A DNA stretch of 64,000 bases from an uncultured Acidobacteriota bacterium (GTDB taxonomy: Bacteria; Acidobacteriota; Thermoanaerobaculia; Multivoradales; UBA5704). This document shows, piece after piece, positions 23,661 to 57,987 of the stretch. The translations under genes and the position numbers were made by a program. The notes below the pieces were generated by a model that saw nothing but the letters and a program-made list of their open reading frames with translations, searched no databases and was not told where the DNA came from. Position 1 is the first letter of the stretch; every line of letters starts with the position of its first letter. Location of the stretch: the NCBI GenBank assembly GCA_963700145.1, contig OY969474.1, positions 4,352,001 through 4,416,000 on the forward strand, given 5' to 3'.

Positions 23661-23936
23661 CTAGCTGCGCTTGGAGGAGCGGCCCTTGGCGCCGCCCGAC
23701 GTGCCGCCCGATCTCTTGGGCGACGACTTCTTGCTCGCGCTGCTCTTGCTCGCCGCCGCCGACTTCTTCTTCGCCTTCGAGCGTTTGCGCGCCGCGGCCG
23801 CCACGGCGAGCCCCGCCGCCGCCAACCCTGCCGCTGCCGCGGCCGCCGTGGCGACCTTCTTGGCGCCCGAGCGCTTCTTGCCGGCGCTGCTCTTGGCGGT
23901 CCCTCCAGCCGAGGATTTCTTCGTCGCCACTCTCAC
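23661..23936 (-). CDS. Small Lys/Ala/Ser-rich basic protein with central hydrophobic segment
   Basis: Strong SD AAGGAGGT upstream; KKS-rich termini flanking VATAAAAAAGLAAAGLAVAAAA; start may be the second GTG (23930). Confidence 0.7.
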   Translation of the reverse strand: MRVATKKSSAGGTAKSSAGKKRSGAKKVATAAAAAAGLAAAGLAVAAAARKRSKAKKKSAAASKSSASKKSSPKRSGGTSGGAKGRSSKRS

Positions 23937-24100
23937 ACCTCCTTTTCGGTCATTGGAGCTGGTCGTTCGCGCGAGCGCCGCGCGGCGTGAACGACATCCG
24001 CTAGCGCTCGGCGAGATCGCGCGTCAAAAACAGCAAGAAGCGTGCCTCGCGCGCTTTCGCACGCGGGCACGCCGAGGTGTCGCGAGCGGGGTGAAGCGGA

Positions 24101-24670
24101 TTACCAGCGGCCGCGCAGGCCGAGGTAGATCTTCCCTTGGATGTCGTCGGTGGCGTCCTGCACGAGGTCGAAGCGCCCGGTGCCGAACGCGCTCCAGCTG
24201 TCGCTGACGTAGAGGTCGATGCCGAACTGCGCGTTGGCGCCGAACTTCGTCTCGGTGTCGTCGCCGGGCAGCCCGAGCAGCTCGGCGTCGATCCAGTGGA
24301 TGCCGGCGCCGACGCCGAAGAAGCTGTCGACGGCGCCGAGCGGCAGCACACCGACCAGGTTCACGCCGGCGAGCAGGTCGCTGGCGCCGCTGTCGCCGTC
24401 CTCCCAGTAGCCGACCTCGGGCTCGAGGTAGCCGTCGATGCCCCCGGCCTGCCTGCCGCGACCCTCGTCGCGGCCGGCCGCGAAGCGCAGCGCCGCCGTG
24501 AAGTAGGTCTCGACGTCGTCGGCCGGCTCCACCAGCCCGACCCCGATCGCCAGCGCGAAGTCGTCGCGGTCGTCGTCGTATTCGTCGTCGTCATCCTGGG
24601 CGAACGCGGGGGCTCCCGCCAGCAACATGGTCACCGCGAGCGCGGCGGTCAACGTGGTCCAGCGCTTCAT
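24101..24670 (-). CDS. Outer-membrane beta-barrel protein (OmpA/OmpW-like small barrel)
   Basis: SD GGAGG; signal peptide ending AFA; alternating hydrophobic strands; C-terminal aromatic (YLGLRGRW). Confidence 0.75.
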   Translation of the reverse strand: MKRWTTLTAALAVTMLLAGAPAFAQDDDDEYDDDRDDFALAIGVGLVEPADDVETYFTAALRFAAGRDEGRGRQAGGIDGYLEPEVGYWEDGDSGASDLLAGVNLVGVLPLGAVDSFFGVGAGIHWIDAELLGLPGDDTETKFGANAQFGIDLYVSDSWSAFGTGRFDLVQDATDDIQGKIYLGLRGRW

Positions 24671-24793
24671 GTTTTCCCTCCTTCCACGGAACGACCCCGG
24701 ACGCCCGCACGGCCCCGCCGATGCGTGTTCCGAAGGCTCATTTGGCGATCAACGACGCAATGTTATCACGCCAGCGGAGGAACCCTCCGCGTG

Positions 24794-25768
24794 TCATGCC
24801 GCGGCCGCTTCTAGGTCGGCCAGGATCGCCTCCCGCACGCGCGGCAGGTGCTCGAGACCGTCGGGATAGGTCAGGCGCTTGACCGGCACCGCGACGGCCA
24901 GTCGCGCGAGGACGTCGAAGCGCCGGGGCTGCCAGCCGGCGGCCTCGACGAGCGCGCCGACGAACGAGTGGCGGACGAGCTCGATCAGCGCGGCGCGCGG
25001 CGCCAGGGCCTCCACCTCGACGCCCCCGGCCGCGCCGGGACGCCGGACGGGCAGGTAGAAGCCGGACAGGGGCCGCTCGGCCGCCTCGAAGGCGCCGAAG
25101 CCGCCGGCGCCGACGGGCACGCGCAGCTTCGGGGAATCGCGGTGCACGCGCGGCAAGCGCGCCGCCGGACCGCAGAAGCGCTCCGCCGCCGCCGGCCAGA
25201 GGCGCATCTGGGGGTAGCCGTGGCGGCCGGAGAAGCCGCCGGGGCCCGGCTCGACGGCGAGGACGTCGTCGGTCAGCAGCGGCAGGCCCCCGTCCATCAT
25301 CGCCGCGGCGAGCGAGCTCTTGCCGCCACCGTTGCGGGAGAGGAAGCCGACCGTCCGCCCGCCGGCCGCCACCACCGCCGCGGCATGGAGGCTGGGCACC
25401 CCGGCGCGCTCGAGCCAGCAGGACAGGACCGTGCCGAGCAGGTGGACCTCCACCGGCCCGAGGTCGTCCGGGTCGGCGGTGTGGCAGACGATCCCGTCGG
25501 CGCCGAGGTGGAAGTCGCCGACGCCCGGGAAGCGCAGGAGGTCGCCCGCCGCGAGCCGGTAGAACGAGCAGTTGCTCTCGCCCCGCGCGGTGCGGAAGCG
25601 GCTGGCGTAGACCGGCGCCGGCAGCTCGTCCGGGGCCGGCGGCGCGCCGGCGCAGGTGAAGGTCAGGTCGGGCGGGCCGGCGCCCGCCGGCAGGCAGCTG
25701 GCGAAGGGGAAATCGCTCGCCAGGACGAGACCGAAGAGGCGGTACGTCCGCCAGGGTCGCTCGCTCAT
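24794..25768 (-). CDS. HPr kinase-related P-loop kinase (RiPP-associated)
   Basis: LHAAAV, Walker-A-like RNGGGKSS, LLTDDVL, MRLWP; ATG 25768 overlaps the upstream TGA. Confidence 0.8.
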   Translation of the reverse strand: MSERPWRTYRLFGLVLASDFPFASCLPAGAGPPDLTFTCAGAPPAPDELPAPVYASRFRTARGESNCSFYRLAAGDLLRFPGVGDFHLGADGIVCHTADPDDLGPVEVHLLGTVLSCWLERAGVPSLHAAAVVAAGGRTVGFLSRNGGGKSSLAAAMMDGGLPLLTDDVLAVEPGPGGFSGRHGYPQMRLWPAAAERFCGPAARLPRVHRDSPKLRVPVGAGGFGAFEAAERPLSGFYLPVRRPGAAGGVEVEALAPRAALIELVRHSFVGALVEAAGWQPRRFDVLARLAVAVPVKRLTYPDGLEHLPRVREAILADLEAAAA

Positions 25769-27462
25769 GCCGCGTACCGCCGCAGCCAGGCCTCCAGGGT
25801 GAGCGTGTGCCAGAAGCGGGCGCTGCGGCTGCGCCCGGCCAGGTAGTCGCCGTAGGCCTCGCGCAGCCGGCGCTCGTCGACGAAGCCCATCCTCGCCGCG
25901 CGCATGCCGGTCATCAGCGCCCAGGCCTTCGCCCGCTCGCGCTCGCGCAGGCCGCGCCGGAAGATGGCTTCGGGATAGGTCTTGCCCCGGCGGTCGAGCA
26001 CCGCGTCGGGAAGACGGCCGCGCATCGCGCGGCGCACGATCTCTTTCCGCCGGCCGGCGGCGAAGGACTGATCGGTGGGGAGGGCGGCGGCGAAATCGAA
26101 CAGCCGGTGGTCGAGCAGCGGATGGCGGAAGTCGATGCCGTACTCCGCCGCCTGCCGGGTGACCTGTGCGGCGACGACCGGCAGCAGCGGGTCGCGCAGC
26201 TGCCGCAGCCGCTCGCGGCGCCCGGGGAGGAGCCGCCGCGGCAGCGGCGGAGGCTCCGCCGGCGCCTCCCGCCGCAACCGCTCGCCCAGCCACGGCACCG
26301 GCGGCGATCGCCGGCGCTCGCGCGCCGGGATGTAGGCGTTGGCGATCGGCGCAAGCGTCATCCAGCGCACGAGCTGGAGCGCCGTCAGCTCCGAGTGCCG
26401 CGCCTGGTCCCGGACCTCGGCGGCGAGCCGCCGCCAGCGGCCGGTCAGCAGGAGGTCGGGGTAGGAGAAGACCTCCCCCCCGAAGAGCGTGTCGCCGCTC
26501 AAGCCCGAGAAGAGGACGCTCACCCCGTGCTCACGCACGCTGTGGAAGGTCGCCTCCCAGAGTCCGGCGTAGGAGTTGGCGAGCGGCGTGGCCGGCTCGG
26601 GGCGGATGCCGGGGTCGCCGCGCAGCGGCCAGTGCTGATCGCCGGCGATGGTGACGCTGCGGCAGCCCAGCCGCGCGCAGACGGCCGCGATCGCCGCGCT
26701 CTCGTCGGCCTCCGGCAGCTCCGGCGCGATCCAGGAGAAGGCGGTGCAGACGGCGGCCGGCGCGGCCTCGCGGATCGCCGCAGCGATGGTCGGGGAGTCC
26801 AGCCCGCCGCTCAGGGTCACTCCCACTTCGCCGGGCGGCGTGTACTCGGCGGCGATCGGCAGCAAGAGATCGCGGAAGGCTTCGGCGTAGGCGGCGTCGT
26901 CGCGCAGGCGGAGGGCCGGCCGCGGCCCGGGCCGCCAGTAGACCTCGCTCGCGATGCGGTCGCGCGTCGCCGTGAGCAGCCCGCCGGGCTCGACGGCGGA
27001 GATCCCGCGATAGAAGGTCTCGCCCGGCGCCGGGGCCCGCCCGTGGAGCTGCGCCAGCACCGCGCGTGGATTGACCTCCGGCCGCGCCACCGCGAGGAGG
27101 GGCTCGACGCCGCCGGCCAGCTGCAGCGTGCCGTCCGCCTCGCGGTAGCAGAGCTCGTGCACCCCCAGGCGGTCGCGCACGGCGAGCAGCCGCCCGCGGT
27201 CGCCGTCCCAGAGGACCCAGGCGAACGGCCCGTAGACGAGACGGGGAGCCTCGCTCCCGTAGCGCTCGTAGAGGGCGACCGCTAGCTTGAGGTCGGAGAG
27301 CGCGGCCGGCGCGCCGAGCCGCGCCAGCAGCTCGCGCCGGTTGGCGATGAACCCCGCCGACCAGAGGCCGCTCAGCCCGGCCGGCGCGGGCGCGCCGCGC
27401 TCCCACGAGATCAGGGACGGCGGTGCGGCGCGGCTCGCGGCGAGCGGAGCGCTGGTCGGCAT
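25765..27462 (-). CDS. Asparagine-synthetase-like lasso cyclase homolog 2 (no N-terminal Ntn Cys)
   Basis: IANRRELL, RDRLG, LSGGLDS, SGLSGDTLF, RHPLLDHRL, RRAMRGRLPDAVLDRRGK. Confidence 0.82.
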   Translation of the reverse strand: MPTSAPLAASRAAPPSLISWERGAPAPAGLSGLWSAGFIANRRELLARLGAPAALSDLKLAVALYERYGSEAPRLVYGPFAWVLWDGDRGRLLAVRDRLGVHELCYREADGTLQLAGGVEPLLAVARPEVNPRAVLAQLHGRAPAPGETFYRGISAVEPGGLLTATRDRIASEVYWRPGPRPALRLRDDAAYAEAFRDLLLPIAAEYTPPGEVGVTLSGGLDSPTIAAAIREAAPAAVCTAFSWIAPELPEADESAAIAAVCARLGCRSVTIAGDQHWPLRGDPGIRPEPATPLANSYAGLWEATFHSVREHGVSVLFSGLSGDTLFGGEVFSYPDLLLTGRWRRLAAEVRDQARHSELTALQLVRWMTLAPIANAYIPARERRRSPPVPWLGERLRREAPAEPPPLPRRLLPGRRERLRQLRDPLLPVVAAQVTRQAAEYGIDFRHPLLDHRLFDFAAALPTDQSFAAGRRKEIVRRAMRGRLPDAVLDRRGKTYPEAIFRRGLRERERAKAWALMTGMRAARMGFVDERRLREAYGDYLAGRSRSARFWHTLTLEAWLRRYAA

Positions 27463-27468
27463 CGGCCG

Positions 27469-27657
27469 TCAGCCGGTCTGGGTGCTCCCGCCGACGATCG
27501 AGTCGGCGGGCGGGTCGTTGGCGCCGGAGAGCGTGAGCTCGCGCAGGCTGCCGTAGATCACCAGCTCCGGCGGCAGGTACGGCTTGCGCGGTCGTCCACC
27601 GGCTGCCGTGCGCGCCGCGGTCTCGTCCCTGGGGTGCCGATCGTCGGGTGCGGTCAT
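27469..27657 (-). CDS. Lasso-peptide-type RiPP precursor (62 aa)
   Basis: MTAPDDRHPRDETAARTAAGGRPRKPYLPPELVIYGSLRELTL-SGANDPPADSIVGGSTQTG; leader YxxPxLxxxGxxxxxT with Thr at -2; Asp at core position 9; ATGA-coupled to the upstream cyclase. Confidence 0.85.
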   Translation of the reverse strand: MTAPDDRHPRDETAARTAAGGRPRKPYLPPELVIYGSLRELTLSGANDPPADSIVGGSTQTG

Positions 27658-29453
27658 CGCGGGATCTCGGAGGAAGAGGCCAGCCTGCCGCTCGCCAGCA
27701 GCCAGCCTTCGGCGGTGAGGAGTTGCCAGAGCCGCGGCGGGAGGGTCTCCGGCGATGCGCTCTGGCGATAGTCGGCGAGGAGCCGGGCGCCGTCGACCAG
27801 GCCGAGCTCCGCGAGGCGCGAGCCGGTGAGGAGCCGCTCGACGGTCGGCCGGGCGCCGGCGAGCAAGCCGCGCGTCCGCAGCGTCGAGCGGCCGCGGCGC
27901 TTCGCCGCCCTGGCGGCGAGGATCGGGGCCGGCAGCTGCCCCGCCATCGCCGCCCGCAGCAGCGGCTTGGCGGGGTGCGCCGCCGCCAGCGCGCGGTCGG
28001 GCAGGGCGAGCACCAGCGCGGCGAGCTCGGGGTCGTGCCAGGGGGCCTCGATGCGCACCCCGCAGCGCCGGCTCAGGCGATCGAAGCGCTCGAGGGCGGC
28101 GGTGTTCGCCGGGCTGGCGAGGGCCGTGCGGCGGAAGCGGTCGCGCGAGGCGAAGACCCGCCAGGAGGCGGCCGGGCGGTCGAAGCCGGCCTCCGCCGCC
28201 AGCCGCCTGCCGGCCGGCGTCAGCCAGTCGGGCCAGCGCGGCCGCCGCACCAGCGTGCGGACCTCGCGCAGCAGCCCCGCGTGGCGCGGTCCGACCTTGC
28301 GCCAGCGGCGCCAGAGCGCGTCGAAGCGGCCGCGTAGGAGGAGCGCCAGCTCCGGCGCCAGCCAGCCGGCCACCGGGTCGCCGCCGATGCCGTTCATCAG
28401 CACGCTGACCCCTTCCTGCCGGGCGGCCTCGAGCGTCGCCAGCAGGAGGTCGGGGAAGGCGTTGGTCTCGGGGTCGCTGGGGTCGGCGTAGGCCTCCGGG
28501 TAGCGGCTGAGCGGCCAGAGCGCGTCCGCCTCGACGGCGTGCTCGACCATGTTGGCGCGGCTGCGGACGAGGGTGCGGCTGAGCGGCGTCTCGTCGATGC
28601 CGTCGCCGCTCGGCGAGGTCCAGGTGAAGGCATAGAGCCGCCGCCCGCGCCGCTCCAGGGCGCCGGCCGCCTGCGCCGCGACGCTCGTCGAATCGAGACC
28701 GCCGGAGAGGAGCACGCCGGTCTCGCCCTGCCGGGCCAGCCGGCGCTCCACGGCCTCGCCGAGCCGGCGGGCGAGCTCCGGCGCCGCGTCCGCGCCGTTC
28801 CAGCTCGCGGCCTCGACGGTCGTCCAGTCCCAGTAGCGGTCGAGCTCGATCCCCTCCGCGGTCACTTTCACCTGGCAGCCCTCGGGGACCCGGTGCACCT
28901 GCGCGAAGTAGCTCCAGGTGGGCTCGGCCGGCGCGCCGAGGAGGTAGGCGAGGAGGCGCGCCCGGTGCGGCTCGCCGCCGATCCGGCCGGAGGCGACCAG
29001 CTGCGCCGGCTCGGAGGCGAACAGGAAGCCCTCGCCGGTGTCGCACCAGTAGAGGCCGCGCTCGCCGCTGCGGTCGCGCAGCAGCAGGAGCTTGCGCGCC
29101 GCCCGATCGTAGAGGGCGGCGGCGTAGGCGCCGCGCAGGTGGCGGTGCCACCGCTCGCCCCAGCGCCCGTAGGCCGCGGCCATCAGGCGCTCGTCGCTCG
29201 TCGTCGCGTCGAGAGCGAGGGCGCGGAGGAGCTCGTCGCGGTTGTCGAGGCGGGCGTCGGCGGCGAGGAGGACCGCTCCGGGGCCGCGCCCGGCGGTCGG
29301 GCCGGCCGGCGCGAGCGTAGCGAAGGCCGCGCCCTCCGCCGTCTCCGTCCGCACCGCCGACCGGTCCATGCGGTCCAGCCCCATCATGCGGTCGAGCACC
29401 GCGGCGGCGACCGGCGCCCCCGCGAAGCTGACCAGGCCGCAGAGGGCGCTCAA
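27654..29453 (-). CDS. Asparagine-synthetase-like lasso cyclase homolog 1
   Basis: Likely TTG start (MSALCGLVSF), DARLDNRDEL, RDRSG, FASE, LSGGLDS, NGIGGD, KPLLRAAM. Confidence 0.82.
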   Translation of the reverse strand: MSALCGLVSFAGAPVAAAVLDRMMGLDRMDRSAVRTETAEGAAFATLAPAGPTAGRGPGAVLLAADARLDNRDELLRALALDATTSDERLMAAAYGRWGERWHRHLRGAYAAALYDRAARKLLLLRDRSGERGLYWCDTGEGFLFASEPAQLVASGRIGGEPHRARLLAYLLGAPAEPTWSYFAQVHRVPEGCQVKVTAEGIELDRYWDWTTVEAASWNGADAAPELARRLGEAVERRLARQGETGVLLSGGLDSTSVAAQAAGALERRGRRLYAFTWTSPSGDGIDETPLSRTLVRSRANMVEHAVEADALWPLSRYPEAYADPSDPETNAFPDLLLATLEAARQEGVSVLMNGIGGDPVAGWLAPELALLLRGRFDALWRRWRKVGPRHAGLLREVRTLVRRPRWPDWLTPAGRRLAAEAGFDRPAASWRVFASRDRFRRTALASPANTAALERFDRLSRRCGVRIEAPWHDPELAALVLALPDRALAAAHPAKPLLRAAMAGQLPAPILAARAAKRRGRSTLRTRGLLAGARPTVERLLTGSRLAELGLVDGARLLADYRQSASPETLPPRLWQLLTAEGWLLASGRLASSSEIPR

Positions 29454-29463
29454 CCGGGGGCGG

Positions 29464-31482
29464 TCACCCTCGAGACGGAGCGCAGAGCTGGCCATTGTTG
29501 TACCTGTCGAGTGTCGTCGCCAGCGGTCCGCCGATCGCCCACGCCGCGCTGCTCGCCTTGACGTTGGCGCCCACCGGCCCGTAGGTCGCCATCCACAGGT
29601 CGGCCGCCGCGATCGTGCCGTTAATGCAGCTCGCGTCGTTGCCGGCGAGGACGTTGAGCTTGGCCGCGACGAGCTGCTCGAACATGTTGTAGGTCTTGTC
29701 GGTCTTGGTGGCCCTCTTCATCAGGGCGATCGCCTGCGCCTTGGTGTAGGTGACGCCGCCGATGGTGATCGTCTGGACCGGCCAGGCCTCCGGGTGGTTC
29801 TTCCAGTAGCCGGGGGTGCCCGTGCCCGGGCCCGCGGTGCGCCGGTAGCCGAAGTCGTAGGTGAGGACGTTCTCGTCGTCCAGGCTGTCGGTCTGCGTCT
29901 CGCCGCCGGTCGTCGAAGTCATTCCCGCCAGAGCGCCGCCGGGCGCGAAGTTGCTGGCGGCGACGCGCACGATGTAGGTGCCCGGCTCGTCGGTGCCGAA
30001 GCAGTAGAGCCCCTGCTCGTCGAGGCCGGTGTTGGCGGCCACGCAGGCGGCCCAGTTAGGCGACGAGGAGTCGCCGGTCGTCACCGTCTCGACGGGGGGC
30101 GAGCCGATGTCGGTCAGCAGCTCGAGCACCACGCCGGCGATCCCGCTCTCGCCGGGGTCCTGGATGCCGTCGCCGTCCGTGTCGAGCCAGACCGTGTCGC
30201 CGAGCAACAGGGGATCCGGCTCCGGGCAGAAGGCGGCGCCGTCGCCGGTCGTCGAGCAGGTGTCCGCGAACCAGAAGTTGAGGTTCGACATGTCGAGCCC
30301 GTAGATCCGCACCCTCCAGGTGCCGGCCGGCAGCGCCACGTCGTTGACGACGTAGTCCGCGTTGTTGGGGTCGGGGGCCGACAGCGTCGAGATCCGGAAC
30401 TGCTCCCACTCCATGTTGCCGGAGGGGTTGTCGTCGCGGTAGATCACCCCGTTCGGGTCGATCACCTCGTAGCGCACGCACCCCACCCGTCCCGGGTCCC
30501 CCGGCTCGCCGCGCCGGAAGATGTCGAAGGTCGAGTCGTCCGGCGGGTTGGGCGGCAGCAGGCCGCCCTCGGGGGTGACGCCCGTGGTGTCGAACGGGAA
30601 ACCGGCGTAGCTCGCCGGCGTGTCCGGGTCGTCGAGGTCGGCGCAGGGAGCGAGGACCGTCCCCGAGGGGGCGCCGACCAGGCCGGTGGTGCCGTGGTCG
30701 AAGTCGCCGTTGAAGAGCTTCAGCTCGGGCACGTCGCCGGGCAGGAGGAAGGTGAAGGTGAAGGTGCCGTCGTAGGTGGTCGGCGCGTTGACGAAGTCGA
30801 GGCCCGGCGGCGGGAACGTCGGCCCCGGATAGATGATCGGGCCGTCGTTGGCGAAGACGCGCAGGCCGGCCTCCAGCCCGAAGGCCGGGATGAGGAAGGA
30901 CATCGGGCTGGTCGAGGCCACCTTGATGTTGCTGGCCAGCACCTCGCCGGCGCCGCAGGCGCCGTCCGACCCGATCGTCAGGTTGTAGAAGTAGTTGCCG
31001 CTCGGCGCCTGGGCCGCCGGCGAGGTGGCGACGGTGACGCCCCACCAGGCGTTGTCGAGCATGCTGGCGCCGGTGGCCGTCCACAGCGGACCGCTCGTCG
31101 GGTTGGGGTCGTTGCCCGTCCAGGCGCCGATCAGGTCCGCCGGCGCCGTGCTCCCTTCGCGCAGCGGGTCGGCGTACAGGCGGTAGACGAGCTGCCGCGT
31201 GCCGACATCCCAGTGGGCCTTGCCGCCGCCGTCGGTCTTGCCGGTCTCGCCGTCGAAGAAGCTGAGCGTGAACGAGGTCTGGCCGGCGGGCGCGGCGAGA
31301 CCGATCGAGAGCCCGAGCTCGAAGGTCGCGGTCCCCGGGCAGCCGAAGGCGAGGAAGCGGCCGTCGGTCGCGTCCTGGGTGGGGAACGAGGAGAACGGCC
31401 CGGGGCCGATCTGCGCCGCCGCCGAGCCGGCGGCGAGGAGCAACAGGGTCGAGAGAAGGACGGTCCGGCGGAGGGGGCTCAT
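29464..31482 (-). CDS. Large secreted protein with SdrD-B-like domain and C-terminal TPGYWKNH domain
   Basis: Signal peptide (…AAGSAAAQ); LGDTVWLDTDGDGIQDPGESGIAGVVLEL...GLYCF...GTYIV...DFGY; GTPGYWKNHPEAWP...QLVAAKLN; Asp/Pro/Gly/Thr-rich. Confidence 0.8.
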   Translation of the reverse strand: MSPLRRTVLLSTLLLLAAGSAAAQIGPGPFSSFPTQDATDGRFLAFGCPGTATFELGLSIGLAAPAGQTSFTLSFFDGETGKTDGGGKAHWDVGTRQLVYRLYADPLREGSTAPADLIGAWTGNDPNPTSGPLWTATGASMLDNAWWGVTVATSPAAQAPSGNYFYNLTIGSDGACGAGEVLASNIKVASTSPMSFLIPAFGLEAGLRVFANDGPIIYPGPTFPPPGLDFVNAPTTYDGTFTFTFLLPGDVPELKLFNGDFDHGTTGLVGAPSGTVLAPCADLDDPDTPASYAGFPFDTTGVTPEGGLLPPNPPDDSTFDIFRRGEPGDPGRVGCVRYEVIDPNGVIYRDDNPSGNMEWEQFRISTLSAPDPNNADYVVNDVALPAGTWRVRIYGLDMSNLNFWFADTCSTTGDGAAFCPEPDPLLLGDTVWLDTDGDGIQDPGESGIAGVVLELLTDIGSPPVETVTTGDSSSPNWAACVAANTGLDEQGLYCFGTDEPGTYIVRVAASNFAPGGALAGMTSTTGGETQTDSLDDENVLTYDFGYRRTAGPGTGTPGYWKNHPEAWPVQTITIGGVTYTKAQAIALMKRATKTDKTYNMFEQLVAAKLNVLAGNDASCINGTIAAADLWMATYGPVGANVKASSAAWAIGGPLATTLDRYNNGQLCAPSRG

Positions 31483-31652
31483 CGTTGTGTCCCTTCTTTG
31501 GGGGAGACCTCTCAGTGTGGTCATCCTTCGTCAGGAGATCGTCAGCGTCGGCTCGCCAATCGGCCGCGATGGGGTTATCCTGGAAGGGCGACGCGAGGCG
31601 TCGAGTGAAACATGTGCAAACTGCTCTGTGTGTACGAGTTGGAGAGCTGCGC

Positions 31653-33785
31653 GTGAGCGCGCTCCGCGTCCGTCTGCTCGGCGGCTTCGAGGTCTGGCAT
31701 GGCGAGCGCCTGGTCGCCGGGTTCGAGTCACAAAAAGCCCGTGCGCTTCTCGCCTATTTGATTTCACAGCGCGGTCGGTCGTTCAGCCGCGACCACCTGG
31801 CCGCCCTGCTCTGGCCGGAGAGCGGTCCGGAGGCGGCGCGCCACGCTCTGCGCCAGGCGGTCTACAGCCTGCGCTCGCTGCTCCCCGCCGGCGAGGCGGC
31901 GCCGCCGCTCCTCGCCGACCACCGCGAGGTCCGCTTCAACCCCGCCGGCGAGCACTGGCTCGACGTCGCCGCCTTCGAGGAGGCGCTGCGCCGCGGCGGC
32001 GTCCAGGCCGACCCCCACCGCCTGGCGGCGGCGGCGCAGCTCTACCGCGGCGACTTCCTCTCCGGCTTCCACGTCAAGGAGGCGCTGGAGTTCGAGGAGT
32101 GGCTCTTCCGCGAGCAGGAGCGGCTGCGCGAGGCGGCGGTGGGCGCGCTGCGCACGCTGGTCGAGAGCTACCGCCGGCGCGGCGAGGTGCGCTTCGCCAG
32201 CCACTACGCGCGCCGCCTGCTGGCCATCGACCCGCTCTCCGAGCCCACCCACCGCGAGCTGATGCGCCTCGCCGCCGCGGGCGGCCACCGCAGCCGCGCC
32301 TTGGCGCAGTACGACGAGCTGCACGAGCGGCTGCAGGCAGAGCTCGGCGTCGAGCCGATGGAGGAGACGCGGGCCCTCTACGAATCGATCCTCGCCGAGC
32401 CGGAGACGGGCGCGGCGCCGGTGGTCGAGGGGGAGGCGGTGGGGCCGCTGGTGCCCCTGGTCGGGCGCGAGGGGCCGCTCGCGGCGCTCGCCGCCGCCTG
32501 GCGCGAGGTGCAGGCGGGGGCCGCCCGCTGGACCCTGGTCGAGGGCGAGACCGGCGTCGGCAAGAGCCGCCTGATCAAGACCGCCCTCGACGCCGCGCTG
32601 GCCCAGGGGAGCGCGTTCGTTCTCCAGGGGCGCGGCTGCGAGCTGCGGCCGCCGCCGCCGCTGCTGCCGATCGCCGAGGCGCTGCGCTCCGTCCTGGCCG
32701 CGGACGGAGCGGAGCGGCTGGTGGAGCAGCCGCCGGCGGCGCTGGCGGAGCTCTGCGTCGCGCTGGCCCGCCAGAGCGGCAGGCCGCTCGTCGTCCTGCT
32801 CGACGACCTCCACCTCGCCGACCCCGGCACCTTCGAGCTGCTGGCGCGGCTGGCGGGGGAGGGGGACTGGCCGGTCTGGATCCTCACCGCCTGGCGCCCG
32901 GAGCAGGTGCCGGAGGGCGACCCGCGGCGGGCGCTGGTGCGGCGCGGGGCGGCGCGGCTCTGGCTCGACCGTCTGGCGCCGGCCTGCTTCGAGGAGATCG
33001 CCGCCGCGCTGGTGACCGAAGGGGAGGCCGCCGAGCTCGGTGCCTGGCTGGCCGCGGGCGCCGCCGGCCTGCCGCTCCTCGCCACCGAGCTGATCAATCT
33101 GCTGCGCGACGAAGGGGTGCTGGTGAACGGCAGCATGACGGGCTGGCGCCTGGCGCGGCCGCTGGCGGCGGTGGCGCCGGCGCCGGCCGACGTGCGCGAG
33201 GTGGTGCTACGCCGCCTCCGCGCCCTGCCGCAGTCGGCGCGCCGTCTCGCCACCCTGGCCAGCGTCATCGGCCGCGGCTTCGAGCTCGGCCTGCTGCAGG
33301 CGGCGGGCGGCGAGCACCCGACGGTCGTCGAGGTGGGTCTCGAGCTGCTGCTCCAGCGCTGGCTGGTGCGGCGGGCGAGCGGCCGCTGGACCGACGAGGG
33401 GCGGGCGGTGGGGGAGGCGCTGTGGGCCGCCGGCGCGCGGCGCGGCGACTTCGAGTTCGCCCACCGGCTGATCGGCGAGACCATCTTCGACGCGGTCGAC
33501 GCGGAGCGCCGGCGCGTCCTCCACGGCGTGGTCGCCGCGGCGCTCGAGGAGCGTTCCGGCGGCGACCCGCGGCGGGGGTGCGAGACGCTCGCCCACCACT
33601 GGCTCGCCGCCGGCCGCCTCGAGAAGGCGGCGCCCTGCCTGCGGCTGGCAGCCGAGCGGGCGTGCGCCCTGGGCGCGGCGGAGACCGCCGCGGCCTACGA
33701 GGCGCTGGCCGCCGAAGCGGCGTCGGCGATCTCCTCGAGCGCCCGCGCCACCCCCGCCGCGTCCCCCACCTCAACCCGCCGGTAG
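31653..33785 (+). CDS. SARP/BTAD-domain transcriptional regulator with STAND-type ATPase
   Basis: wHTH LRVRLLGGF...KARALLAYL...LLWPE; BTAD LYRGDFL...DPLSEPTHRELM; Walker A GETGVGKS; Walker B VVLLDDLH; divergent from the RiPP operon. Confidence 0.85.
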   Translation: MSALRVRLLGGFEVWHGERLVAGFESQKARALLAYLISQRGRSFSRDHLAALLWPESGPEAARHALRQAVYSLRSLLPAGEAAPPLLADHREVRFNPAGEHWLDVAAFEEALRRGGVQADPHRLAAAAQLYRGDFLSGFHVKEALEFEEWLFREQERLREAAVGALRTLVESYRRRGEVRFASHYARRLLAIDPLSEPTHRELMRLAAAGGHRSRALAQYDELHERLQAELGVEPMEETRALYESILAEPETGAAPVVEGEAVGPLVPLVGREGPLAALAAAWREVQAGAARWTLVEGETGVGKSRLIKTALDAALAQGSAFVLQGRGCELRPPPPLLPIAEALRSVLAADGAERLVEQPPAALAELCVALARQSGRPLVVLLDDLHLADPGTFELLARLAGEGDWPVWILTAWRPEQVPEGDPRRALVRRGAARLWLDRLAPACFEEIAAALVTEGEAAELGAWLAAGAAGLPLLATELINLLRDEGVLVNGSMTGWRLARPLAAVAPAPADVREVVLRRLRALPQSARRLATLASVIGRGFELGLLQAAGGEHPTVVEVGLELLLQRWLVRRASGRWTDEGRAVGEALWAAGARRGDFEFAHRLIGETIFDAVDAERRRVLHGVVAAALEERSGGDPRRGCETLAHHWLAAGRLEKAAPCLRLAAERACALGAAETAAAYEALAAEAASAISSSARATPAASPTSTRR

Positions 33786-54863: not shown

Positions 54864-56161
54864 CGCACCCACTCCGGCCGCAGCAGGCCGGTGCCGGTGA
54901 CCGCGAGCTGGAGCGCCAGCCCCATCGCGGCGCTCGCGGTGCCGAAGAGGAGCACTCCGGCCGTGGTGCCGAGCGGCAGGAGCGCCACCAGGAGCGCCTG
55001 GAAAGCGACGAGCACGACGACGGCCAGGCCGTGCAGCCGCGTCCAGGAGCGCTGGAGGTTCACGCCGACGGCATAGCCGCCGAGGAGCGTCAGTCCCGCT
55101 GCCGCCACGACCAGCAGCAGCTCGCGGTCGAGGTCGGCGTAGCGTCCGCCCAGGAGCCAGAGGAAGGGGCGGGGCGCCGCCCAGGCGGTGGCGAACAGCG
55201 CCAGCGCCACCGCCGCGAGGAGACTCCCGAACTGGAGGTAGCGCCGGAAATAGAGCCGCTCGTCGGCGATCCGCGCCAGCCGCGGCAGGAAGACGATGCC
55301 AGTCAGCCCGGAGAAGAGTCCGACGATCAGGCCTAGCCGCCCGAGCGCGCCGACCTCGGCGATCGTGCGCGCCTGGCCGAAGGCGGCGGCGAGCCAGACC
55401 ACGAGCGGTGCCTGGAAGGCGAAGTAGAAGGCGCTCGGCAGGGTCGGGAGGAGGAAGCGGAGGACGCGCTTGCGGTAAGGGGCGAGAGGCCCAGCGGGCG
55501 CAGCCTGCGCTTCCCGGGGCTTGGCTCCGGCGGCCAGCCGCACGACCAGGGCGGTGCCGGCGGCGGTGGCGAGGATCGCGAGCCAGGCCTCGAGCCAGGC
55601 GAGGACCACGAGGAGAGCGGTCACCCCGAGCCGCAGCAGGGCGCCGGCCAGCTCCGCGCGATAAGAGCGGCCGTAGCGGTCCTCCAAGCGCAGCATGAGG
55701 AGGCGCAGCGAGGAGTCGATCTGGAACCAGACGCAGAGCAGGATGCCGGCGACGACCGGCAGCGACTCACGCGCACCGAACCCCTCGGCCGCCGCCGCCG
55801 CGGGAAAGACGGCGACGACCGCCAGTGCGCCGAGCAGGAAGGCGCCGCGGCGCAGCGACAGGACCGCATGGCGGTAGGGCTCGAACGCCGCGCCCCCCTG
55901 CTCGCGGTGGAAGAAGTGGAGGAGCGACCCGGTGCTCCCCAGGTCGGTGAGGAAGGTGAACATCCCGACGACCGAGACCGCCAGGGTGTAGAGCGCGAAC
56001 TCGCGCACCGGCAGCGCCCGCACCAGCAGGAGCCCGGCGGCGATTCCCGCCAGCTGAGTCACCGTTTGCGTCGAGAAGTACGCCGCGAAGATGCCGCTCC
56101 AGCGCTTGGCGCGTGCGAAGCGACTGGCCGGGACGACGGCGACCGTGGCGGCGTCCATCAC
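54854..56161 (-). CDS. Wzx-like polysaccharide flippase
   Basis: N-terminal LLLVRALPVREFALY...DLG pattern; many hydrophobic helices; position in the glycan operon. Confidence 0.7.
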   Translation of the reverse strand: MMDAATVAVVPASRFARAKRWSGIFAAYFSTQTVTQLAGIAAGLLLVRALPVREFALYTLAVSVVGMFTFLTDLGSTGSLLHFFHREQGGAAFEPYRHAVLSLRRGAFLLGALAVVAVFPAAAAAEGFGARESLPVVAGILLCVWFQIDSSLRLLMLRLEDRYGRSYRAELAGALLRLGVTALLVVLAWLEAWLAILATAAGTALVVRLAAGAKPREAQAAPAGPLAPYRKRVLRFLLPTLPSAFYFAFQAPLVVWLAAAFGQARTIAEVGALGRLGLIVGLFSGLTGIVFLPRLARIADERLYFRRYLQFGSLLAAVALALFATAWAAPRPFLWLLGGRYADLDRELLLVVAAAGLTLLGGYAVGVNLQRSWTRLHGLAVVVLVAFQALLVALLPLGTTAGVLLFGTASAAMGLALQLAVTGTGLLRPEWVRWA

Positions 56162-57987
56162 GCCGCCCTTCCCGCGCCGGCCGCCAGCTCGACCCCGTGC
56201 TCCGCCAGCACCCGCAGCGCCACCTGGCGCGACTGCGCGCCCAGGCCCTGCGGCGCCGCCGGCCCCTCGCCGCCGGCGGCCAGCCAGGGGACGACCGGCA
56301 CGTAGAAGCCGGTCTTGGCGCGGTCGAAGACCGCCTCCGGCAGCTCTGGTGCGGCGTGCCGCACCAGCTCCCGCTTGCCCGACGAGCGCGCCGGCTCGAA
56401 GCCAAGCGCGGCGAAGCGTGCGAGGAGCCAGGCGTCCACCAGCGGCACCCGCAGCTCCAGCGAGTGGGCCATCGCCGCCCAGTCGGCGTCGCGCAGGAGC
56501 TGGTTGCGCAGGTAGTGCCTGGTTTCCAGGCGCTGCACCGCGAGCCAGGCTTCCGCGCCGCCGGGAAAGTGGCCATTTCCCGCGGCGAGGTTGCGCGCCG
56601 CGTCGGCGACCGGGTCGTAGGCCGCGAGCCCTTCGGCCGCCGCGTCGGCGCCGAGCAGCGCCGGCAGCTCCTCGGGGAGGAAGAGGCCGCGGCGGAGGAA
56701 GTAGGCGCCGGGCAGCGTGCCGCCGTGGCGGAGCGCGCCCGCGAGCTTCGGCCGCTCGGCGAAGGCGCGCCGCGCGACGGCGGGCCAGAGCGACGGAAGG
56801 CCCGGCACGCGGCGGGCGCGTCGCGCCTGCCGCTGGAGGCGCGGCACGTCGGCGAACGACGGGTAGCCGCCGAAGAGCTCGTCGCCGCCGAGGCCGGAGA
56901 GGGCCACCTTGATCCCCGCCTCGTGCGCCGCCTTGCTCACCAGGAAGACGTTGAAGCCGTCGATCGCCGGCTGGTCCATGGCGTCGAGCGCCGCCGGCCA
57001 GAGGTCGAGGAAGTCCTCCCGCCGCACGGTGCGCTCGACGTGGTGGGTGCCGAGCCGGCGCGCCACCGCGGCGGCCAGCGGCCCCTCGTCGCGCTCCGTG
57101 CCGGCCAGGACGTCGAAGCGGAGGGTGAAGGTGGTCGGCGGCTCGGGCGCGGCGCGGGATGCGAGGGCCGCGACGAGCGTCGAGTCGAGCCCGGCCGAGA
57201 GGAAGACGGCGACCGGCACGTCCGAGACGAGATGGGCGCGGACGGAATCGGCGAGCGCCGCGGCGGCGTCGCCCGCTCCGTCCGCCTCGGGCTGCGGAGC
57301 CGGCTCGACGGCGAAGGGCGCCGGCGCCTCGATCCGCCCGTCGCGCACCAGCAGGCGGTGGCCGGCCGGCAGCGCGCGCACGCCGCGGCGGATCGTCCAG
57401 GGCTCCGGCACCGAGCCCCAGAGCAGGAACCCGGCGAGCCCCGCCGGCTCGACGGCGCGCGACACCGCGCCGCCGGCCTCGAGCGCCTTGACCTGCGAGG
57501 CGAAGCGCAGGACGCCGTCCTCGACGGCGTAGTAGAGGGGCTTCACCCCCAGCGGGTCGCGGGCGAGGAGGAGGGTCTGCTCCGCCTCGTCCCAGAGGGC
57601 CAGCCCGAACATGCCGCGCAGGCGGCGCAGCATCGCCGCCCCCTCGCGGGCGTAGAGCGTGAGCAGCACCTCGGTGTCGCTGTGCGAGCGGAAGCGCCGG
57701 CCCTCACGCTCGAGCGCCGCGCGCAGCTCGCGGAAGTTGTAGATCTCGCCGTTCAGGACCGCGTGCAGGCGGCCGTCGGCCGAGGCCATGGGCTGATCGC
57801 CGGCGGCCGAGAGGTCGAGGATGGCGAGGCGCCGGCTGGCCAGGGCGGCGCGGCCGTCGGGTGAGACCCAGTCGCCGGCGCCGTCCGGCCCGCGCGCCGC
57901 CATCCGCTCGCGCGTGCGCAGCAGCTCGTCACGGTCGAGCGGCGGCGCCGCGGGGGAGAGGCGGAGGAGGCCGTTGATGCCGCACAC
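56158..57987 (-). CDS. asnB: Asparagine synthase-type glutamine amidotransferase (probably polysaccharide amidation)
   Basis: MCGING (Ntn Cys2), RGPD, RRLAILD, NGEIYN, SDTEV, RDPLGVKPLY, LSAGLDS, SGLGGDELFGGY, MAHSLELRVP. Confidence 0.9.
   Translation of the reverse strand: MCGINGLLRLSPAAPPLDRDELLRTRERMAARGPDGAGDWVSPDGRAALASRRLAILDLSAAGDQPMASADGRLHAVLNGEIYNFRELRAALEREGRRFRSHSDTEVLLTLYAREGAAMLRRLRGMFGLALWDEAEQTLLLARDPLGVKPLYYAVEDGVLRFASQVKALEAGGAVSRAVEPAGLAGFLLWGSVPEPWTIRRGVRALPAGHRLLVRDGRIEAPAPFAVEPAPQPEADGAGDAAAALADSVRAHLVSDVPVAVFLSAGLDSTLVAALASRAAPEPPTTFTLRFDVLAGTERDEGPLAAAVARRLGTHHVERTVRREDFLDLWPAALDAMDQPAIDGFNVFLVSKAAHEAGIKVALSGLGGDELFGGYPSFADVPRLQRQARRARRVPGLPSLWPAVARRAFAERPKLAGALRHGGTLPGAYFLRRGLFLPEELPALLGADAAAEGLAAYDPVADAARNLAAGNGHFPGGAEAWLAVQRLETRHYLRNQLLRDADWAAMAHSLELRVPLVDAWLLARFAALGFEPARSSGKRELVRHAAPELPEAVFDRAKTGFYVPVVPWLAAGGEGPAAPQGLGAQSRQVALRVLAEHGVELAAGAGRAA

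Follow-up and report, generated by a model that had tools for sequence, protein, structure and literature searches.

How can a lasso-peptide cluster function when the genes for leader recognition and leader cleavage are missing from it, and what does a second cyclase-like enzyme do in such a cluster? Both questions are raised by a locus in a 64,000-nucleotide stretch of DNA from an uncultured Acidobacteriota bacterium (hereafter the window), which corresponds to positions 4352001-4416000 of contig G000:C1, G000 being the window's genome, 5.46 Mb in size. Five closely spaced genes of this window encode a secreted SdrD-like protein, an asparagine-synthetase-like protein (Asn1), a lasso precursor, a second asparagine-synthetase-like protein (Asn2) and an HPr-kinase-like kinase. 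They are accompanied neither by a gene for B1, the recognition element (RRE) of peptides made on ribosomes and modified after translation (RiPPs), nor by one for the peptidase B2. Comparison of genomes indicates that the locus is canonical in relatives and B-less in this genus, and that what is new in it is a second, conserved cyclase-like enzyme, linked to an additional Asp of the ring. The reading favoured here, with a probability of about 0.6, is that the locus is a functional member of the lasso family whose B1 and B2 were lost in the genus and are served in trans by a second lasso cluster, with Asn1 as a tailoring enzyme.

Family models identify the locus as a real lasso-peptide cluster. 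The precursor scores above the cut-off of the lasso leader model (Table 1), and the lasso-cyclase model NF033535 is the best NCBIfam match of both synthetase homologues: Asn2 reaches 215 bits against 130 bits with the AsnB model TIGR01536, and Asn1 179 against 136 bits, both remaining under the TIGR01536 cut-off of 267 bits. For the AsnB encoded elsewhere in the window the order is reversed, with 155 bits for NF033535 and 364 bits for TIGR01536. The initial annotation had described a lasso-type RiPP locus with a kinase and two Asn-synthetase homologues, both keeping the SGGLDS motif and lacking Cys2, and had contrasted these with a true AsnB at 56-58 kb. The model matches and motif inspection agree with this description, the AsnB being recognised by its start and by a score above the cut-off. 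Besides the SGGLDS PP-loop, GxxGD and KxxxR motifs are present in Asn1 and Asn2, and Asn2 has no N-terminal Cys.

Orthologues of Asn2 (41-92% identity) were found in 14 other species genomes: G001, G004, G007, G012, G018, G021, G026, G037 and G038 among 41 genomes searched, G064, G068, G209 and G227 among 251, and G656 among 92 genomes of the family. The source names of close homologues place the cluster family in the class Thermoanaerobaculia. The Asn2 orthologue always lies just downstream of a precursor; Asn2 is present in 16 of 16 loci and, as 11 of these contain no other synthetase homologue, can be assigned as the conserved lasso cyclase of this cluster family. In G656 the last ~50 residues of the orthologue (L216:13393-13539) stand in another reading frame, owing to a frameshift or an assembly error. 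The precursor carries the leader motif YxxPxLxxxG...LT and a core of 19 residues with Asn4-Asp5, Asp9, Gly14-Ser15 and a C-terminal Gly. Y27, P30, L32, Y35, G36, L38, L41, T42 and core D52 are invariant in 11 orthologous precursors, and an acidic residue at core position 7-9, which is Asp9 in the window, occurs in 16 of 16 family precursors, the cores of which are 17-31 residues long with tails of varying length and end. Family membership and the invariant core Asp suggest that Asn2 would adenylate Asp9 and close a macrolactam with the new N-terminus.

Leader processing in a cluster lacking B1 and B2

The proteins of the window and the B1 and B2 of the second cluster were mapped by tblastn on the DNA around each Asn2 orthologue. 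The common layout consists of a regulator on the opposite strand followed by the SdrD-like, precursor, Asn2, kinase, B1, B2 and outer-membrane-protein (OMP)-like genes, with additional genes or a different order in some genera. Eleven loci besides that of the window have usable flanks; G001, G007 and G064 end too early for B1 and B2 to be judged. Both genes are adjacent in nine loci (G038, G037, G026, G012, G021, G656, G227, G209 and G068), G018 has B1 only, its contig ending 0.6 kb past the OMP gene, and G004, which belongs to the same genus as the window, has neither. Outside that genus, B1 and B2 are found in the locus in nine of the ten loci with enough flank, including both other genera that have Asn1. 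They lie between the kinase gene and the OMP-like gene; in G656, B2 is on the opposite strand, beyond the OMP gene. Judged by these flanks, adjacency of B1 and B2 is the rule and the window's genus is the exception. The suggestion that their absence marks a non-canonical pathway was consequently not borne out. Recurrence of the five-gene synteny, a check proposed with the initial annotation, was seen for the layout in orthologous loci; Asn1 is present in only a minority of them and B1/B2 are usual elsewhere. The ancestral layout would have been regulator, SdrD-like, precursor, cyclase, kinase, B1, B2 and OMP-like, from which the B1/B2 pair would have been lost between the kinase and OMP genes, now separated in the window by 123 nt. 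Some genera have, between the cyclase and kinase genes, a protein of 318-320 aa whose C-terminal domain is PqqD/RRE and whose N-terminal part belongs to no Pfam family (L033:6438-7400, plus strand, in G037; L031:10451-11407, plus strand, in G018). This second RRE-bearing protein is absent from the window's locus.

Where, then, could the missing functions come from? Pfam searches of the whole genome gave no PqqD or Transglut_core3 match inside the window, in line with the earlier observation that no B1 or B2 is visible in or near the locus. In the genome as a whole, a single Transglut_core3 match exceeds the cut-off; it scores 87.9 bits and covers G000:C1:4437229-4437561. PqqD is matched twice, at 4436946-4437146 (55.9 bits) and 1155713-1155907. 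About 54 kb from the focal locus, at G000:C1 about 4,433,975-4,437,594, there is a complete second lasso cluster in the order C-A-K-B1-B2, encoding a cyclase of 627 aa, a precursor of 70 aa, a kinase-like protein of 267 aa, a PqqD protein of 97 aa and a B2 of ~147 aa. This B2 reaches 79 bits with the NCBIfam model lasso_biosyn_B2 (cut-off 33), and the precursor, the core of which contains no Lys, reaches 20.9 bits with the leader model (cut-off 19) and has the same leader motif as the focal one. When all six frames of the genome were scanned for the leader motif with a tail of 10-40 residues behind it, exactly these two precursors were recovered. Against two precursors, three cyclase homologues and two kinases, the genome thus has a single B1/B2 pair.

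Supply in trans is favoured because there is a single genomic B1/B2 pair, the leader motif is the same and there are only two precursors. The second-cluster B1 and B2 would bind and cleave the focal leader, and this is, on balance, the best reading of how leader binding and cleavage are provided; it is also the explanation that most simply squares lasso biochemistry with a B-less cluster that is intact and under constraint. Of the two alternatives that the initial annotation had left standing, it is B functions in trans that gains, since the complete cluster ~54 kb away holds the only B2 of the genome. B1 proteins of focal-type clusters in other genera share 40-53% identity with the B1 of the second cluster. 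G004 possesses both the B-less cluster and the second cluster (90-97% protein identity), including a B2. The focal leader keeps every position that is invariant in the 11 orthologues, implying that an RRE and a peptidase are still being used. A complex of the second-cluster B1 with the focal precursor was predicted with a score of 0.52, against 0.01 for the best of three controls, the runs agreeing in at least 95% of contacts and the partner having a predicted local distance difference test (pLDDT) value of at least 53. Of 157 solved complexes, 116 attained the mark, as did 2 of 215 mismatched pairs; with scores of 0.60 or below, only 18 of the 157 solved complexes attained it, together with both passing mismatches. 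The prediction lends weak support. The pass may only reflect likeness to solved complexes, since RRE-leader complexes have already been solved. According to PMC13381572, FusB1, a discrete lasso RRE, retrieved non-cognate leaders in pull-downs, and RRE selectivity is determined mainly by the Y or W of the YxxP/WxxP motif; both precursors of the genome have Y at that position.

Two other origins of the missing functions were rejected. The PqqD match at ~1.155 Mb adjoins a radical-SAM/HemN-like gene and has no lasso genes nearby. That the focal B1/B2 moved into the second cluster is countered by G034, where the second-cluster type also has its own B1/B2, with similar identity. The stand-alone PqqD-family gene at G000:C1 ~1,155,700 (L221:5678-5995, minus strand), next to genes for a radical-SAM/HemN_C protein and a disulphide-isomerase-family protein, may itself be part of another RiPP-like locus.

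The lack of B1/B2 could also mean that the locus is an orphaned remnant, the genes of which have not yet decayed and from which no mature lasso peptide is made. The absence of two genes that homologous loci elsewhere carry fits this idea, and the initial annotation had regarded adjacent B1/B2 in homologues as the sign of a decayed copy. A look-up of RNA runs containing the stretch returned none, which is neutral on the point. The homologues do carry them, but decay of the focal copy did not follow: all five open reading frames (ORFs) are intact, and nothing suggests relaxed constraint. Rough pairwise ratios of nonsynonymous to synonymous substitution rates (dN/dS) obtained by the Nei-Gojobori method are 0.19-0.55 against three genomes, namely 0.29-0.55 for Asn1 (against G001 and G656), 0.27 for the precursor (against G001), 0.19-0.42 for Asn2 and 0.25-0.37 for the kinase (both against G001, G004 and G656), compared with 0.20-0.28 for the second-cluster genes (against G004). 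Moreover, the RRE-binding leader motif and the Thr at position -2 are conserved in both B-less species, G000 and G004. The B-less layout has been kept in these two species, between which the synonymous distances (dS) of the flanking regulator, SdrD-like, kinase and OMP genes amount to 0.07-0.20. A remnant is accordingly improbable. In the same comparison, Asn2 has a dS of 0.58 and the precursor cores differ completely. Because this high dS and these unrelated cores contrast with the low dS of the flanks, the precursor-cyclase segment (25765-27657) behaves like a cassette that is hypervariable or has been swapped, with conserved genes on either side.

Least probable of all is maturation independent of B1/B2. 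In that case the leader would be cut off by a housekeeping protease, or the cyclase would not need its removal, while Asn1 would hold or activate the precursor in place of RRE and peptidase. Pseudomycoidin was made in vivo from the core alone by its macrolactam synthetase and without leader protease, as stated in PMC6993621, and Asn1 is present in this B-less locus, but Asn1 stands alongside adjacent B1 and B2 in G656 and G037, the sister species G004 lacks Asn1 as well as B1/B2, so that Asn1 does not track B loss and is not a stand-in for B, and the leader retains the full RRE-binding motif.

The extra cyclase paralogue and the kinase

If leader processing is supplied in trans, what remains to be explained is the second synthetase. 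Asn1 is ~30% identical to both Asn2 and the second-cluster cyclase. In a collection of 5.8 billion proteins its family comprises 33 proteins including the window's, with 32 relatives at 41-91% identity, followed by a drop to 30%. Placing the synthetases in a tree, as had been proposed, resolved separate clades for Asn1 (support 99), Asn2 (100) and the second-cluster cyclase (99) in a quick maximum-likelihood analysis of 42 rows. By identity and tree position, Asn1 represents an ancient lineage of its own among cyclase-like adenylating enzymes and not a recent duplicate of the cyclase.

Among species genomes, Asn1 was found only in G000, G001, G656 (69% identity) and G037 (45%), in all four of which it lies directly upstream of the precursor and Asn2. 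It was detected in G000 only among 401 genomes of the phylum and, in a stricter first look, in G000 and G037 only among 401 genomes of the class; G037 held the sole orthologue among 251 genomes of the order, and G001 and G656 had it among the 92 family genomes. A scan of metagenome and genome contigs with the Asn1-family alignment returned, among the matches listed, only distant relatives (at most 36% identity) and no Asn1 orthologue. In the protein collection, 17 of the 32 relatives are encoded on a contig equal in size to that of an Asn2-family protein, a proportion of 15 out of 20 when only contigs of at least 5 kb are considered. The identities to the window's Asn1 and Asn2 correlate over the 17 pairs (r 0.85), which fits long co-inheritance. 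By the same criterion of equal-size contigs, only 17 of 103 Asn2-family proteins have an Asn1 partner; Asn1 is therefore an optional module. In the loci examined it was not seen as the sole synthetase beside such a precursor.

A clue to its role comes from the precursor cores. An Asn-Asp dipeptide at core positions 3-5 is present in all five Asn1-positive loci (G000, G001, G656, G037 and the contig of P0012/P0045), whereas none of the 11 Asn1-negative loci has it. This association suggests that Asn1 may act on the extra Asp of the core. Asn1 is probably a new tailoring enzyme. In the mechanism envisaged, it would activate the carboxylate of the extra Asp, within the Asn-Asp of the ring, for a second amide-type linkage or a conjugation. 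A more specific version can be put forward only tentatively: Asn1 might represent a new class of lasso tailoring enzyme in which the Asp, activated with ATP, is joined as a second lactam or imide, or to an external amine, giving a doubly linked scaffold that would be new, and two different lasso pathways might run in one cell on one B1/B2 pair.

The features of the enzyme itself are cyclase-like. The N-terminal domain resembles that of ordinary lasso cyclases such as the one of the second cluster, and the adenylation motifs (PP-loop, GIGGD and KxLLR) are intact. The N-terminus MSxxCG (consensus MSxICG) is common to the 25 aligned members of the family, and its Cys, residue 5 when counted from a TTG start or 19 from ATG, is kept in 22 of 25 members and never stands at position 2. 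The sole PDB sequence match is the hydroxyamidotransferase 7ylz (E 7e-16). A function as glutamine-dependent amidotransferase was judged unlikely, as the Cys is not N-terminal and D-A-R is found, as in cyclases, where the window's AsnB has NGE, residues which we take to be glutamine-binding.

These likenesses, together with the best model match, would also suit a redundant or alternative cyclase that makes the same ring or a second ring size without new chemistry. This possibility is rated low. Asn1 has only ~30% identity to Asn2 and its own clade, has been kept beside Asn2 through the long co-divergence seen in the 17 pairs, and is never the only synthetase in the loci examined; furthermore, cores from clusters with Asn1 have an additional Asp at position 4 or 5, too near the N-terminus for a threaded ring.

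The kinase completes the proposed pathway. As a single sequence it matched only TIGR04352 in NCBIfam (E 5e-5), and a search against the PDB returned nothing but P-loop noise. In an alignment of 12 homologues, residues H128, K150, D167 and D168 are invariant, and the family profile matches the HPr kinase/phosphatase structures 1ko7, 3tqf and 1jb1 (E 1e-4 to 3e-4) over the stretch that contains the His, the P-loop and the Asp-Asp pair. Among the 12 family members, four have a match to Pfam Hpr_kinase_C. The label "HPr-kinase-like" of the initial annotation is thus weak from the single sequence, and the alignment and the profile speak for it. The His-Lys-Asp-Asp motif is the signature of lasso kinases, the conserved target of which is the C-terminal Ser of the linear precursor, according to PMC9266682. 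The focal kinase probably phosphorylates a Ser or Thr of the precursor. Ser ends only 2 of 16 family precursors, whereas a Gly-Ser/Thr pair, 2-7 residues past the ring Asp, occurs in 16 of 16; because the C-terminal residue is not conserved, this pair is proposed as the target.

Several points weigh against the combination of B functions in trans and tailoring by Asn1. The roles of the focal genes are predicted from sequence, and the scores of Asn1 (179 bits) and Asn2 (215 bits) lie far under the NF033535 cut-off of 525 bits, which the canonical second-cluster cyclase likewise fails to reach with 374 bits. Trans supply is an inference drawn from the joint occurrence of the clusters, the leader motif common to both precursors and a complex score that is weak, and the main message of PMC13381572 is that RREs can evolve to discriminate between leaders. 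In G001, which has the run Asn1-precursor-Asn2-kinase, no B2 was found in an assembly that is 81% complete and on a contig that ends 130 nt past the kinase gene. At 74% G+C the dN/dS values are only rough, and the tree stems from the quick likelihood search instead of the careful one. The Fisher p of 0.0002 overstates the Asn-Asp link, because the positives represent at most four independent lineages, G000 and G001 being near-identical. The core has no Lys or other amine that stays free after ring closure and hence offers no obvious intramolecular partner for a second lactam. Finally, the Gly-Ser/Thr pair is a guess as the site at which the kinase would act.

Gene calls and flanking genes

The window has a G+C content of ~74%, and long spurious ORFs are abundant in it for that reason. 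Despite these, the family evidence supports all five minus-strand genes as real (Table 1), and the matches agree with the gene order given by the initial annotation. The ATGA overlaps that it had reported at 27654-27657, between Asn1 and the precursor, and at 25765-25768, between Asn2 and the kinase gene, were read directly in the sequence and derived from the ORF ends, respectively; the gap between precursor and Asn2 is 6 nt. The ATG of Asn1 at 29495 overlaps the SdrD gene by 32 nt, and an in-frame TTG at 29453, 10 nt past the SdrD stop, gives a protein of 599 aa. This TTG is most likely the start, as the N-terminus common to the family suggests. A scan of 23900-32000 for promoters and terminators found no promoter-like site and one terminator-like site, no more than in shuffled sequences.

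Table 1. Positions in the window of the focal genes, their neighbours and the reference AsnB
Feature	Position	Strand	Remarks
SdrD_B-domain protein	29464-31524	minus	686 aa; Pfam SdrD_B E 4.6e-12, residues 441-547
Asn-synthetase-like 1 (Asn1)	27654-29495	minus	613 aa from ATG; Pfam Asn_synthase
Lasso precursor	27469-27657	minus	62 aa; NCBIfam lasso_leader_L3 (NF033521) 21.3 bits, cut-off 19
Asn-synthetase-like 2 (Asn2)	25765-27462	minus	565 aa; Pfam Asn_synthase
HPr-kinase-like P-loop kinase	24794-25768	minus	324 aa; presumed peptide kinase
SARP/BTAD + AAA ATPase regulator	31485-33785	plus	Pfam BTAD 3.3e-22, AAA_16, Trans_reg_C; divergent neighbour
Small beta-barrel OMP-like protein	24101-24670	minus	weak Pfam OMP_b-brl match, E 0.0056
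True AsnB	56161-57987		starts M-C-G; TIGR01536 364 bits, cut-off 267

The genes on either side recur with the cluster. The SdrD-like protein, encoded by the first gene of the same-strand run, is secreted and has one SdrD_B domain, with no Pfam family matching residues 1-440 and 560-686. In at least 10 of the 14 other genomes, an SdrD-like gene likewise lies upstream of the cluster's orthologue. The C-terminal ~125 aa (29464-29844, minus strand) are 54-58% identical in the SdrD-like neighbours of distant genera, and in a protein atlas search nothing matched this C-terminal part above chance level, the best score being 0.82. An orthologue of the regulator adjoins the SdrD-like gene in G004 (96% identity), G018, G656 and G064; in G038 it is located beside the kinase gene, on the opposite strand. 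Downstream of the cluster, an OMP-like orthologue occurs in 8 of the 14 other genomes. The link between the lasso cluster and a secreted SdrD-like protein is thus conserved. Directly upstream of the second-cluster cyclase, outside the window, lies the gene of a secreted protein of 1254 aa with a C-terminal, gingipain-like Peptidase_C25 domain (L009:2135-5899, plus strand, corresponding to G000:C1:4430134-4433898). Both lasso clusters of the genome are therefore preceded by a large secreted protein.

Comparison with known lasso systems

Lasso peptides attract interest as stable scaffolds, and the range of structures that they can support grows with every added tailoring enzyme. The presence of Asn1 predicts a specific ring residue, from which a concrete hypothesis centred on Asp5 can be formulated. 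The case also calls for caution in genome mining, where a locus that seems to rely on another cluster for leader processing would be overlooked or misjudged by tools for which B1/B2 must be part of the cluster, and it bears on the selectivity of RREs between pathways in one cell. A literature search on lasso clusters with two cyclases, covering PMC papers under CC licences and bioRxiv, found nothing relevant.

The closest systems are of the paeninodin type (PadeK, ThcoK and SyanK), with which the family at large shares a lasso precursor, an Asn-synthetase-like cyclase, split B1/B2 and an HPr-kinase-like kinase; the His-Lys-Asp-Asp motif is likewise present in the focal kinase. Paeninodin-type precursors end in Ser, whereas the focal precursor ends in Gly, and the leaders of Bacillota paeninodin-like peptides carry WxxP (PMC13381572) where the focal leader has YxxP. 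The focal copy differs further in that it lacks B1/B2, has the extra synthetase paralogue and is flanked by the conserved SdrD-like and OMP-like neighbours. Canonical split-B clusters consist of A, B1/RRE, B2 and C, a set that is matched by the second cluster and by the focal orthologues in other genera. In contrast, the focal locus is devoid of B1 and B2, and the genome has one B1/B2 pair beside its two precursors and three cyclase homologues.

Class V (gelatinamin A and lariocidin B) offers a precedent for tailoring by which a lasso scaffold gains a second ring, as described in PMC13178200. In these peptides, a clostripain-like transpeptidase, and not an ATP-dependent synthetase, makes the second ring by linking a Lys side chain with the C-terminus; the focal core has no Lys.

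The architecture of Asn1 itself is best compared within the AsnB superfamily. Members that use a nucleophile other than ammonia, such as lasso cyclases and the hydroxyamidotransferase 7ylz, combine an N-terminal-nucleophile (Ntn)-like domain without a working N-terminal Cys with a PP-loop domain, as does Asn1. Beta-lactam synthetase is a further member of the superfamily with a non-ammonia nucleophile. Unlike these enzymes, Asn1 forms a clade of its own that has so far been met only beside lasso cyclases of the Asn2 type.

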